This document shows, piece by piece, positions 1,235 through 7,042 of a stretch of 30,097 nucleotides of DNA. The stretch is from a virus (taxonomy: Duplodnaviria > Heunggongvirae > Uroviricota > Caudoviricetes), in IMG/VR virus record IMGVR_UViG_2724679538_000002. One strand, given 5' to 3'. Numbering within the stretch: the stretch's first letter is position 1; each line of letters starts with the position of its first letter. Under the pieces are notes generated by a model. It was not told the origin of the DNA, searched no databases, and saw only the letters and a program-made list of their open reading frames with translations. The position numbers and the translations under genes were made by a program.

Positions 1235-1455
1235 TCCGGAATATTTTCAAACTGTTTACCAATCAGACTTTCCGTTGTCCTCGTCCGGGTCAGTGGTACA
1301 CCACGCCTGCAGGGCATGTTCTACGTGTTAGCTTGGTGGACCGTGAATGTCAGAAGGTGATTTGTGAACCGCTGGGCCGTAATTACCGCGTCAGTATGCC
1401 GCTTATAGCCTTTCGCTCCGGAAAAAACATGAAGCATCTCGGAGGTGCAGCATGA
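1231..1455 (+). CDS. hypothetical small phage protein (74 aa)
   Basis: ORF is translationally coupled at both ends (ATGA overlaps with the Rha stop and with the start of the downstream replication gene). No recognisable domain. Confidence 0.45.
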   Translation: MIRNIFKLFTNQTFRCPRPGQWYTTPAGHVLRVSLVDRECQKVICEPLGRNYRVSMPLIAFRSGKNMKHLGGAA

Positions 1456-2270
1456 GTATGGAGCTAATGGTTAAAGCGATGAAAATTCGAGTGGGAAATC
1501 CATTGCGAAAACTGGTTCTGATTAAGCTGGCTGATAATGCCAGCGATCAGGGCGAGTGCTGGCCCAGCTATCAGCATATCGCTGATCAGTGCGAGATTAG
1601 CAAACGTTCTGTGATGAATCATATTGCGGCCCTCTGTGAGTCCGGGCTGGTAAAAAAAGTCACCAGGAAAGGTGAAAAAGGTAACTCAAGTAATATCTAT
1701 CTTCTTCATCTTGATGGTGCAGGAGATTCACTAGGGGGTAGTGCAAATAATTCACTATCTGGTGCAGCAAATTCACCAGGTAGTGCAGGAGTTGCACCAG
1801 GGGGTAGTGCAGGAGATTCACCCAGAACCAGTCACTCTTTTGAACCAGTCAATGAACCAGTCAATGAACCAATAGCTGTTGGTGCATCTGCTGATGAGTC
1901 TGTGCGAGTTCGTTCAAACCGACCGGAATACTCTCCGGAGTTTGGGCAGGCATGGCTGGCATATCCCAAACGTGCTGGTGGCAATTCAAAATCTGCAGCC
2001 TTCAAAGCCTGGAAAGCCCGTTTGAATGAGGGGGTAAAACCCGAAACCATGCTGGAAGGTGTGAAACGCTACGCGGGCTGGGTATCTGCGATGGGTAACA
2101 GCGGCACACAATTTGTGAAACAGGCTGTCACGTTCTTTGGTCCGGATCGTCATTTCGAAGAATCCTGGGAAGTTCCTGCGGTATCTGCAGCCAGACGCGA
2201 GGACCCGTACTTCAAAGCCAGTTACGACAACGTGGACTACAGCCAGATCCCGGCAGGATTCAGGGGGTAA
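1452..2270 (+). CDS. phage replication initiation protein: N-terminal HTH domain, low-complexity linker, DnaT-like C-terminal domain
   Basis: N-terminus 'LRKLVLIKLADNASDQGECWPSYQHIADQCEISKRSVMNHIAALCESGLV' is a typical replication-protein HTH. The Gly/Ser/Ala-rich linker is encoded by the iterons. The C-terminus ends '...DYSQIPAGFRG', which resembles the C-terminus of E. coli primosomal protein DnaT as I recall it. Confidence 0.65.
   Translation: MSMELMVKAMKIRVGNPLRKLVLIKLADNASDQGECWPSYQHIADQCEISKRSVMNHIAALCESGLVKKVTRKGEKGNSSNIYLLHLDGAGDSLGGSANNSLSGAANSPGSAGVAPGGSAGDSPRTSHSFEPVNEPVNEPIAVGASADESVRVRSNRPEYSPEFGQAWLAYPKRAGGNSKSAAFKAWKARLNEGVKPETMLEGVKRYAGWVSAMGNSGTQFVKQAVTFFGPDRHFEESWEVPAVSAARREDPYFKASYDNVDYSQIPAGFRG
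1716..1870. repeat. intragenic iteron array (candidate phage origin of replication)
   Basis: Five direct repeats of roughly 17-21 bp built on 'GGT(AGT)GCAGGAGATTCACC' (approx. 1716-1731, 1737-1755, 1761-1777, 1779-1798, 1803-1823), followed by two tandem copies of 'GAACCAGTCAAT' (1842-1865). They lie inside the replication gene, as lambda ori does inside O. Confidence 0.55.
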
Positions 2271-2272
2271 TC

Positions 2273-2761
2273 ATGAGTCTTTTGAATGAAGTTCAGAAAT
2301 TCATTGAAGCCCATCCGGGGTGTACTTCCGGAGACATTGCGGATGCTTTTGCAGGTTACTCACGGCAGCGCGTTCTGCAGTCAGCAAGCAAGTTACGTCA
2401 GAGTGGGCGTGTGGCTCACCGTTGTGAAGGGGATACACGCAGACATTTCCCGCGCCTGACTGAGAGAGCACAGGAGCCGGAACCACAACCAGTTCGTGAA
2501 ACCAGACCTGTGCGCAATTTCTATGTCGGCACTAACGATCCCCGTGTGATTTTGTGCCTGACCCGCCAGGCTGAAGAACTGGAGTCCAGGGGCTTATACC
2601 GTCGTGCTGCAACGGTGTGGATGGAGGCATTCCGTGAAAGCCACTCCCAGTCAGAACGAAACAATTTTCTGGCGCGCCGCGAGCGGTGTGTACGCAAAAG
2701 TAAAAGGTGCGTGGCATCGGGTGAAGAGTGGTATCTGCCAGGCAATTACGTGGGGGCTTAA
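2273..2761 (+). CDS. putative transcriptional regulator, PerC-like C-terminal region (tentative)
   Basis: 162-aa ORF starting 4 nt after the upstream stop. The C-terminal segment '...GLYRRAATVWMEAFRESHSQSERNNFLARRERC' resembles my recollection of PerC/Pch-type activators. Not verified. Confidence 0.4.
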   Translation: MSLLNEVQKFIEAHPGCTSGDIADAFAGYSRQRVLQSASKLRQSGRVAHRCEGDTRRHFPRLTERAQEPEPQPVRETRPVRNFYVGTNDPRVILCLTRQAEELESRGLYRRAATVWMEAFRESHSQSERNNFLARRERCVRKSKRCVASGEEWYLPGNYVGA

Positions 2762-5683: not shown

Positions 5684-5715
5684 AATACGCCCCATGCAGG
5701 GGCGTATTATTTACT
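5684..5715. terminator. bidirectional intrinsic terminator between convergent Q and KAP genes
   Basis: Perfect 10-bp stem 'aatacgcccc'/'ggggcgtatt' with a 5-nt loop, 1 nt after the Q stop and directly abutting the KAP gene stop, followed by a T-rich tract. Confidence 0.65.
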
Positions 5716-7042
5716 GGATGAATGACATTTGATTAATATATTTTATCAATAACTCTCTGGGTGTAGTACTCCAAAAATTTAGGTGTTCATAATCAGTATA
5801 AACATTTGTGAATTTTTTAAGTTCTTCATCACTTTTAGGGGCAAATCGCTCATTAAGAGTAATACTGTCTTTAATTATTCCGAAGAATACAATAGATATT
5901 TCAGGAATTTGTGATCTTCTCTCATAAGAATAAGGTATTTCTTTTATGTTAAGCAGGTCTGCTAAATGAGATATAGATTCAGCGGTAATTTCTTGTTTTA
6001 GTTTTTCCTTGTCACCAAAGCAATGTATGAAGACAGCTACGACAAAGATCCTATTTATTAAAGGATCACTGCTTTTGTACTCATCGTCGTTTAACAGTTG
6101 AAAAATGTTAAGATTACGTGAAAAAGTTTGTGTTTCACGTAAGGATAAGTTGGTTCGTTGAATTAAATCACGGATAAATCTACCAGATAAACTATTAATT
6201 TCATTTAGTGATTTCGTCTTGTCTACAAGGTAATTCCAATATATAACAGATGTTTTACATACGACGTGACCATCTATTAAACATGTATCTGGAAGCGTGA
6301 TGGTATATTTTATAAACTTGTCAAGATACTTTTGTGAGTTAATACTATAACCATAAATATGATTTATCGATGCTTTTAATTGTTCTGTGTTTGTAACTAA
6401 AATAAAAAAAACATTATTGATGTCAAAAATGTGTTTTATTGTTTCAATGACATTTGTTGAAAAACTCGGCTTACATCGGTCTAATTCATCAATTATAATT
6501 ACTATCTTTTGATTTTCTGAAATGCTTTCGATGCAAGATTTAAGTGAATTTATGTTTTTCTCTGATTCCATATGGTCTTCAAGCAAATTTTCAATAGTCC
6601 CATCTATTGCTGCATTGCTTGCTTTCTTCATCGCATCTTGGAATTCTTCGGCAACTTCACTAGCCTCCTGTCGTAAAAACCAACCTGCACCAGCTTTTAG
6701 TACCGTTTTTAAACCAAATCGAATTGCAGGAAGAGATCTCTTAATGAAGTGTTGTTTTTCTTCCTCAGGCAAAATGCTGGCAATTGCAGAGGTTATGAGA
6801 AGTAATGGAGATTCTGCATGATCCCCTTTAAAGGCATCAATATAAACAACTTTAGATTCGGTTTCTTGCTCAATAATGAGATTTTTCAGTTTGATACTAA
6901 ATTCTGTTTTCCCTGTTCCCCATGCGCCGTCTATTACCAGTGGTGAAATGTCTGCCTCTGGTTTTAGCAACTTGATGATATTTTCAGCGATGTTTCTTCG
7001 TTGGAACTCGTCACGTTCAGTGAAAGATAGTGTATCTAACAT
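5711..7042 (-). CDS. KAP-family P-loop NTPase
   Basis: Walker A in the KAP-typical form 'IDGAWGTGKTEF' and Walker B 'IVIIIDELDRC'. 443 aa with no alternative frame. Visibly AT-rich relative to flanking phage genes. Convergent with Q. Confidence 0.85.
   Translation of the reverse strand: MLDTLSFTERDEFQRRNIAENIIKLLKPEADISPLVIDGAWGTGKTEFSIKLKNLIIEQETESKVVYIDAFKGDHAESPLLLITSAIASILPEEEKQHFIKRSLPAIRFGLKTVLKAGAGWFLRQEASEVAEEFQDAMKKASNAAIDGTIENLLEDHMESEKNINSLKSCIESISENQKIVIIIDELDRCKPSFSTNVIETIKHIFDINNVFFILVTNTEQLKASINHIYGYSINSQKYLDKFIKYTITLPDTCLIDGHVVCKTSVIYWNYLVDKTKSLNEINSLSGRFIRDLIQRTNLSLRETQTFSRNLNIFQLLNDDEYKSSDPLINRIFVVAVFIHCFGDKEKLKQEITAESISHLADLLNIKEIPYSYERRSQIPEISIVFFGIIKDSITLNERFAPKSDEELKKFTNVYTDYEHLNFWSTTPRELLIKYINQMSFIQ

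Follow-up and report, generated by a model that had tools for sequence, protein, structure and literature searches.

The 30,097-nucleotide stretch of DNA analyzed here (IMG/VR record IMGVR_UViG_2724679538_000002; hereafter the window) covers the early-right and late regions of an SfV-like lambdoid prophage, and its open reading frame (ORF) at positions 1452-2270 on the + strand, entered in the ORF list with 272 residues, is the replication initiator of this SfV-type phage. The reading of the sequence toward which we lean is that this gene contains a lambda-style replication origin within its own coding region, that it makes up an initiator-only replication module, and that its product recruits the DnaB-DnaC complex of the host through a C-terminal tail ending in the same motif, IPxGFRG, as the host restart protein DnaT. 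Both the gene family and the placement of an origin inside the initiator gene are of known kinds; new are the loader-less state in conjunction with a DnaT-type tail and the association between the type of tail and the helicase-loading set found next to it. In the prophages found in E. coli, Shigella and Salmonella, which include both Stx2c-converting and serotype-converting ones, the replication module of the window is among the commonest.

The first-pass annotation had taken 1452-2270 for a phage replication gene, and this assignment holds firm. Residues 3-271 of its product match PHROG 270 ("replication initiation protein") at 2.6e-87, making the 272-residue protein a full-length member of the SfV orf39/PHROG 270 family, and nucleotides 1200-2800 are 96-97% identical (about 97% for the orf39 region of SfV) to SfV, where orf39 is annotated as "replication protein," to mEp460, to many Stx2c phages, and to 2H10 and 1720a-02. 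The counterpart in 1720a-02 bears the name "primosomal protein I," a label given to some of these phage genes by automated annotation. Since residues 1-140 and 154-272 find their matches in different PHROGs, the protein is modular. At least 590 relatives sharing its N-terminal domain are present in IMG/VR, and 80 related loci were compared in this study.

No gene for a helicase loader accompanies this initiator. As had been supposed, no P-like or DnaC-like gene lies downstream, where Pfam places every neighboring gene in another family and where the next gene is PerC-like. Searches by tblastn with nine loader and helicase queries (DnaC, five phage DnaC/IstB-like loaders, two DnaB-like helicases and lambda P) returned nothing from the whole window, a stretch that does not reach into the early-left region of the phage from which it comes. 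The complete genomes of SfV (37 kb) and SfII (41 kb) contain no DnaC-, IstB-, DnaB- or P-like gene as judged by annotation, Pfam and tblastn, and in the 80 related loci the loader and helicase queries other than lambda P found nothing. Both SfV and SfII are viable phages. In the window, and likewise throughout the genomes of SfV and SfII, the replication module consists of a solo initiator, and the phage encodes neither a helicase nor a loader that these searches could detect.

The tail through which the host complex would be captured comprises residues 243-272 (2178-2267, + strand), which are predicted to be disordered (predicted local distance difference test below 50). The protein terminates in ...DYSQIPAGFRG, i.e., ...DNVDYSQIPAGFRG, and DnaT of E. 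coli K-12 (NC_000913) in SQIPPGFRG (...SEPDSQIPPGFRG; over a longer stretch, ...VNTVSEPDSQIPPGFRG). The resemblance to DnaT pointed out in the first-pass annotation is real, as BLASTP aligns the last nine residues (2241-2267, + strand) with eight of nine identical, and it is confined to these nine. Set against the DnaT peptide S-x-P-D-x-x-I-P-x-G-F-R-G, the window protein possesses the SQ and the IPxGFRG, with N-V-D-Y in place of S-E-P-D.

The expectation that the C-terminal part as a whole would show similarity to DnaT profiles was not borne out. The helical C-terminal domain (about residues 160-242; 1929-2177, + strand) belongs to a widespread family of initiator C-domains with 4187 cluster representatives, which nearly always occupy the C-terminal position in proteins of 250-330 residues. 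Comparison of its profile with that of DnaT yielded a probability of 2.4%, and the Pfam DnaT model (PF17948, a three-helix DNA-binding domain), which does match DnaT itself and the phage protein SPN1S_0046, has no match in the window protein. Single-sequence searches of PDB, Pfam and NCBIfam with the whole protein and with its C-terminal part revealed nothing DnaT-like. Neither the N-terminal oligomerization domain of DnaT nor its acidic PriB-binding linker was found, the BLASTP alignment being limited to the tail and the N-terminus being of the HTH_36 type. The models Phage_rep_O (PF04492) and Phg_2220_C (PF09524) do match the relatives Gifsy-2 O and mEp390 gp42; they have no match at E<=0.01 with the whole protein or at E<=10 with the C-terminal part. 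A weak local alignment between the C-domain and DnaT (AWKARL..GV.PE with LWGIAL..PVTPEE) was discarded, as a structure search gave it no support. Protein searches with the C-domain brought up mostly truncated database entries and showed that alternative tails exist.

Short tblastn queries against the phage collection, for which the tail offers about 9-17 informative residues, located it in about 100 phage records; all of these come from Escherichia, Shigella, Salmonella or Klebsiella, and in each the tail closes the annotated initiator. The residues of IPxGFRG are invariant in DnaT orthologues of 16 genera. A long consensus, R-x-V-N-x-[IV]-[SP]-x-P-D-x-x-I-P-x-G-F-R-G, concludes DnaT, SPN1S_0046, Rac YdaU, Gifsy-2 O, POCJ13 gp16 and 689R5 O, and a short form, YS[QR]IP[AT]GFRG, concludes the proteins of the window/SfV/ST64B type, mEp390 gp42 and SfII_41. 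At least five unrelated scaffolds carry the tail: a true DnaT domain (SPN1S_0046), Phg_2220_C (mEp390 gp42), a lambda-O-like domain (SfII_41), a protein with a Phage_rep_O N-domain (Gifsy-2), and the C-domain type of the window, which is also that of POCJ13 gp16 and 689R5 O. The 24-residue tail is identical in the window protein and in SfII_41, where the C-domain is lambda-O-like. At the DNA level, window positions 2195-2330 are 95.6% identical to SfII and the sequence 5' of 2195 is unrelated, so that the tail cassette and the downstream module form one DNA block that is joined to a different C-domain in SfII. To judge from these sequence comparisons, the tail is an exchangeable cassette and a portable motif. 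Because its codons vary synonymously between lineages and SPN1S keeps the peptide without an AGGGGG and without an abutting gene, selection acts on the peptide.

Two of these proteins are worth describing in their own right. The C-domain of SfII_41 (L005:2661-3602) aligns to that of lambda O (L111:87-986) at E = 7e-26; a C-domain of the type that is the partner of P in lambda is here combined with a DnaT-type tail, which amounts to a naturally occurring exchange of tails on a lambda O scaffold. SPN1S_0046 (L015:2248-3063), from an epsilon15-like Salmonella phage, contains a bona fide DnaT DNA-binding domain (PF17948, 3.9e-18) and gives the impression of a phage equivalent of DnaT's C-terminal half. 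It and the initiator of a similarly organized Klebsiella prophage (L097:1805-2575) bear the tail and have no adjacent loader gene.

The end of the tail-coding sequence doubles as a translation signal. At 2262-2275 (+ strand), in the junction AGGGGG TAA TC ATG, the Arg and Gly codons of the tail form the ribosome-binding site of the PerC-like gene (2273-2761). The junction TTC AGG GGG TAA nn ATG is common to the window, dnaT-dnaC, the Gifsy-2 pair of O and DnaC-like genes, and Rac ydaU-ydaV; dnaT lies directly 5' of dnaC, with the junction built as in the phage initiator-loader pairs. In the form TTC AGR GGG TAA n2-6 ATG AAA AA, which includes the MKN start of the loader, it recurs in chromosomal dnaT-dnaC and in phage pairs of initiator and DnaC-like genes (L001:1976-1985; L010:3555-3570; L011:2010-2030; window 2260-2275). 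This conservation between dnaT-dnaC and the phage pairs suggests a common origin of the two-gene module formed by an initiator or DnaT and DnaC.

The company kept by the tail points to its probable partner. We compared, in a sample picked by hand, 14 motif-bearing lineages with seven relatives that have other tails. In eight of the 14 (POCJ13, Gifsy-2, SPN3UB, Rac, P0255, P0234, P0259 and P0312), the next gene encodes a loader of about 248 residues whose identity to E. coli DnaC, beginning at residue 1, is 49-50%. The other six (window/SfV/ST64B, SfII, mEp390, 689R5/Evi/HannyBb, SPN1S/ST11-OXA245phi3.2 and P0324) have no loader, and a phage helicase is present in none of the 14. Among the motif-less relatives, five of seven (phiP27, Stx2_14040, P0233, P0279 and P0228) possess an IstB-like loader together with a DnaB-like helicase, these loaders having a foreign N-terminus and resembling DnaC in their AAA+ part only (32-35% identity); of the remaining two, Bcep22 has a loader without a helicase, and Vibrio D77 lacks both. 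A Fisher test of the resulting table ([[0,14],[5,2]]; hand arithmetic) gives a p of about 0.001 for a hand-picked sample of non-independent lineages that recombine. Lambda O, whose partner is P, is without the motif and has a tail of its own, ...TNTDWIYGVDL. A simpler rule, according to which presence of the tail would mean absence of a loader, was ruled out, as POCJ13, Gifsy-2, Rac and SPN3UB have both the tail and a DnaC-like gene. The first-pass annotation had offered two routes by which the host helicase might be brought in, the PriA/PriB/DnaT-type restart primosome or DnaC directly. The comparative evidence favors DnaB-DnaC over PriA/PriB, since the tail occurs alongside a full-length DnaC homologue or where a loader is lacking, and in no case alongside a phage helicase.

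A second class of tail, [DN]YG.T..P.W(A[RK]) or ...DYGxxxCNW, is found on the same C-domain as that of the window (L012:2488-3381, P0228, P0233, P0279, P0232, P0242, P0296 and P0319). In every case examined in which the contig is long enough, an IstB-like loader and a DnaB-like helicase follow next, and this tail may be a docking peptide for the IstB-like/DnaB-like set.

The other half of the protein and the DNA that encodes the linker behind it carry the features expected of a lambda-type origin. The N-terminal domain (about residues 1-88; 1452-1715) includes a winged-helix DNA-binding core at residues 17-67 (1500-1652, + strand; Pfam HTH_36, 1.8e-11) and matches DnaD_N at 3.6e-5, which is below the cut-off of that model. 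Both repeat arrays previously noticed behind this domain were recovered by a repeat finder and by Tandem Repeats Finder (TRF), the first with a 21-24-nucleotide unit spanning 1717-1822. In register, this array resolves into five 15-bp cores of the form GTGCA-N5-T(T/G)CAC, located at 1717-1731 (GTGCAGGAGATTCAC), 1741-1755 (GTGCAAATAATTCAC), 1762-1776 (GTGCAGCAAATTCAC), 1783-1797 (GTGCAGGAGTTGCAC) and 1807-1821 (GTGCAGGAGATTCAC again), and thus spaced by 24, 21, 21 and 24 bp. Each core is an imperfect inverted repeat with four to five of five arm bases complementary, core 4 being a perfect 5+5 palindrome. A pattern search with GTGCA-N5-TKCAC found six matches in the window against 0.25 expected, a number that none of 100 shuffles reached; all of them lie within the array at 1717-1821 and none elsewhere in the 30 kb, and the five cores give six matches because the palindromic iteron 4 is counted on both strands. 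The code for the interdomain linker of the initiator holds five dyad-symmetric iterons; together, the two arrays encode residues 89-140, a Gly/Ser/Ala-rich segment (DGAGDSLGGSANNSLSGAANSPGSAGVAPGGSAGDSPRTSHSFEPVNEPVNEP).

The suggestion that these repeats are iterons of the lambda type is strengthened by their dyad symmetry, by their position in the linker code right after the winged helix, and by the fact that they travel with the N-domain. SfII_41 and phiP27 L17 have in common an N-domain that differs from that of the window, and their C-domains differ from each other; in the same place of the gene, both have another dyad-symmetric repeat, TCAGAWTCTGA, with a period of 15 in five to six copies. 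In ST64B, the N-domain, the iterons and the 12-nucleotide repeats are about 97% identical to the window and the C-domain only 79% (at the protein level), showing that the former three are inherited as one block. The copy number of the iteron array ranges from four to seven units, in 21-bp steps, across the 80 IMG/VR loci that share the N-domain of the window. Given the position corresponding to lambda ori, the separate repeat of SfII_41 and phiP27 L17, the ST64B block and the copy-number changes by whole units, we infer that the first array is bound by the initiator and serves as an origin rather than merely as the code for a repetitive linker.

Directly next to iteron 1, at 1673-1715, the gene is at its most AT-rich (27.5% GC by a 40-nucleotide sliding measure, within the bottom 2.2% of the window's 40-mers); the role of this stretch as a candidate unwinding element is speculative. 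The single-strand fold of the repeat region is not unusual (z = -0.5). On the far side of the iterons lies the second array, 1825-1871, with a period of 12, made up of three copies of GAACCAGTCA plus a partial one and encoding (EPVN)n. Exact copies of GAACCAGTCA start at 1825, 1842 and 1854 only (span 1825-1863), and the perfect 12-nucleotide unit TGAACCAGTCAA is present in 2.6 copies with 100% identity at 1841-1871 by the repeat finder and TRF. This EPVN/EPVK array has two to five copies in natural variants of the 80 related loci and stays with the iteron block in ST64B; it may be a second binding site, a spacer or a mere product of slippage.

The lambda paradigm and the comparative data lend themselves to the following model. 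Dimers of the N-terminal winged-helix domain would bind the five iterons at 1717-1821, which follow one another at a distance of two helical turns within the DNA that encodes the initiator's own disordered Gly/Ser linker. The resulting nucleoprotein complex would destabilize adjacent DNA, with the AT-rich 1673-1715 as the best candidate. The helical C-domain would then present the disordered tail ending in IPxGFRG, and this tail, by the comparative association, would dock the DnaB-DnaC complex of the host by contacting either DnaC itself or DnaB as part of the complex, and in this way host DnaB would be loaded at the phage origin. The tail is thus a concrete candidate for the means by which loader-less phage and plasmid-like initiators capture host DnaB-DnaC and, equally, for the step at which DnaT hands the preprimosome over to DnaB-DnaC. 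According to a 2026 cryo-electron microscopy study (PMC13377028), how DnaT recruits DnaB/DnaC "remains unknown," and DnaT's N-terminal domain has been suggested for this task. The tail would also be a simple sequence marker predicting the host factors on which a lambdoid prophage depends.

A wider proposal, which we advance only tentatively and hold to be less probable than the model itself, would generalize from these comparisons. IPxGFRG would be a portable dock for DnaC-DnaB, and lambdoid initiators would owe the choice of their loading partner to a C-terminal peptide, about 15-25 residues long, that can be exchanged: a tail of the DnaT type would go with DnaC-type loaders of host or phage, the DYG..P.W type with an IstB-like loader and a phage DnaB, and the tail of lambda with P. 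The chromosomal dnaT-dnaC operon would then represent, in domesticated form, the C-terminal half of such a pair of phage initiator and loader.

Several observations weigh against a lambda-style origin served by a DnaB-DnaC-docking tail. The window tail matches DnaT over only nine residues and is without the upstream VN..SEPD part common to DnaT, 689R5, POCJ13, Rac, Gifsy and SPN1S. The association of tails with loading sets comes from a hand-sampled table of lineages that swap modules and are hence not independent. The AT-rich stretch also encodes the conserved wing KGNSSNIYLLHL, and coding alone could explain its composition; moreover, it lies to the left of the iterons, whereas that of lambda lies to the right. 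No DnaA box was found near the repeats. Finally, removal of residues 154-179 from DnaT modestly alters the cooperativity of its binding to single-stranded DNA, so that the tail could act on DNA instead of on a protein (PMC4132743).

From this last finding follows the chief rival role for the tail, which we nevertheless judge rather unlikely, namely that of a DNA-handling element. At the melted origin the tail would make the initiator bind single-stranded DNA more cooperatively or oligomerize more readily, and it may do the same in DnaT. The dissociation constants for dT30 of 27 uM for DnaT 84-153 and 9.9 uM for DnaT 84-179, with Hill coefficients of 2.1 and 2.7 (PMC4132743), speak for such a role, as do the one aromatic and one basic residue of the motif. 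However, it would leave unexplained why the motif occurs with DnaC-type loaders or with none and is absent alongside phage helicase sets or lambda P, and most of the five unrelated domains that carry the peptide have no known activity in binding single-stranded DNA. We think it unlikely that the tail instead recruits the PriA/PriB restart primosome, whereby the handle of DnaT on PriA or PriB would bring PriA-PriB-(DnaT) to the opened origin for the loading of DnaB. DnaT does work within the PriA/PriB preprimosome, and the cryo-electron microscopy study (PMC13377028) has its C-terminal domain docking PriA via a small hydrophobic interface; the same study, however, describes PriB as binding the acidic DnaT linker, not the tail. 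In addition, the DnaT chains of the mature preprimosome (PDB 9ZBU) are listed with 154 residues versus 179 in the full protein, the motif tracks DnaC-type loaders and nothing PriA-related, and it is kept even in phages that have a full DnaC homologue of their own. It seems very improbable to us that the tail is conserved at the nucleotide level only, as a ribosome-binding site and mosaic recombination joint whose peptide has no function. Most copies do end in TTC AGG GGG TAA nn ATG, with a rare Arg codon forming the Shine-Dalgarno sequence, and tail cassette and downstream module are one 95.6%-identical DNA block in SfII. Yet lineages use different synonymous codons for I, P, x, G, F, R and G, the SPN1S gene closes with TTT CGC GGT TAA and has the next gene start 120 nucleotides away, some copies have two to three extra residues beyond GFRG, the motif is invariant in chromosomal DnaT, and a Shine-Dalgarno sequence accounts for at most two codons, not for I-P-x-G-F.

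Turning to the origin and to the missing loader, we give little credence to the notion that the repeats are only the code for a slippage-prone, low-complexity linker and that the real origin of the phage lies elsewhere. This notion is compatible with both arrays being in frame (21/24 and 12 nucleotides) and encoding Gly/Ser/Ala or EPVN repeats, with the natural changes in copy number and with the insignificant single-strand structure. A coding repeat, however, has no need for the dyad symmetry of the 15-bp core, a different dyad-symmetric repeat occupies this position in genes with the unrelated N-domain type, the layout mirrors the annotated lambda ori, and the repeat type goes with the N-domain and not with the C-domain. 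That one of the constant flanking genes encodes an unrecognized loader, e.g., the 74-residue protein (1231-1455) or the 162-residue PerC-like protein (2273-2761), strikes us as quite unlikely. Both genes are translationally coupled to the initiator, through the ATGA overlap and through the Shine-Dalgarno sequence in the tail codons, respectively; all 80 related loci have the PerC-like gene, and the PHROG of the 74-residue protein has no known function. Against this stand the match of the PerC-like protein to families of transcription activators, the other neighbors of further motif-bearing solo initiators (689R5/Evi, SPN1S, mEp390 and P0324), and the fact that neither flanking protein has, by sequence, a nucleoside triphosphatase (NTPase) fold or a known DnaB-binding fold.

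The preferred reading of a lambda-style origin with a host-directed tail gains contour from known systems. Like the window initiator, lambda O has an N-terminal winged-helix domain for origin binding, a separate C-domain for helicase recruitment, and a mosaic exchange of N- and C-parts. Its four to five dyad-symmetric iterons lie in its own gene at the linker that follows the domain, at about codons 117-145 compared with codons 89-124 in the window. Unlike lambda O, the window initiator has no Phage_rep_O or Phg_2220_C match, no P gene, and a DnaT-type peptide in place of ...TNTDWIYGVDL, and its AT-rich stretch is on the opposite side of the iterons. E. coli DnaT shares with it SQIP(P/A)GFRG on a disordered tail and the same form of junction with the next cistron. 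The pairs Rac YdaU-YdaV, Gifsy-1/2 O-DnaC-like and POCJ13 gp16-gp17 resemble the window in having the same IPxGFRG tail and no phage helicase, but they keep a loader 49-50% identical to host DnaC; the window phage has none and therefore must rely on that of the host. Such reliance is familiar from iteron plasmids, in which a single initiator (pSC101 RepA, R6K pi or RK2 TrfA), unaccompanied by a loader, binds the iterons and recruits host DnaB-DnaC. These plasmids have origins that are located outside the rep gene and that in most cases require DnaA boxes, whereas the window array has no DnaA box nearby. We know of no sequence relationship between their initiators and that of the window, for which no dedicated search was made.

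DopC, a lambda-O-derived protein of Alteromonadales and Oceanospirillales, combines an HTH_36 N-terminus with a DnaT C-terminal motif that replaces Phg_2220_C (Brezellec et al., 2017; PMC5509034). HTH_36-DnaT fusions of this general kind are consequently not new. DopC differs from the window protein in being chromosomal, in having a P-derived partner, DopE, in the absence of iterons, and in possessing the DnaT domain (PDB 2RU8) rather than the terminal peptide only. In the literature covered by our search, which did not extend to the review by Weigel and Seitz (2006), we came upon no account of either the tail or these origins.

The initiator gene is embedded in the early-right region. In the window, the gene order is Ash/Rha regulator, 74-residue ORF, initiator, PerC-like, LexA-DNA-binding-like, RusA, KilA-N, DUF968 and Q, and lysis and myovirus structural genes lie 3' of Q. 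The initiator ATG overlaps the TGA stop of the conserved 74-residue ORF (PHROG 1153) in an ATGA at 1452-1455, which implies translational coupling of the two. We found no promoter-like sites and no meaningful terminator. The upstream regulator (83-1234, + strand) has 383 residues, with an Ash domain at residues 117-213 and a Rha domain at 223-308, and is longer than SfV orf37 with its 278 residues. A dam methyltransferase gene is positioned between the PerC-like and LexA-like genes in 68 of the 80 related loci and in SfV and SfII; the window is without it, and its PerC-like and LexA-like genes overlap directly (2761-2728 junction). In antisense orientation, with Q on one side and the genes for DNA methylase and holin on the other, 5711-7042 (- strand) encodes a KAP-family P-loop NTPase of 443 residues (Pfam, 2.7e-70), a moron by its looks and possibly a defense gene.

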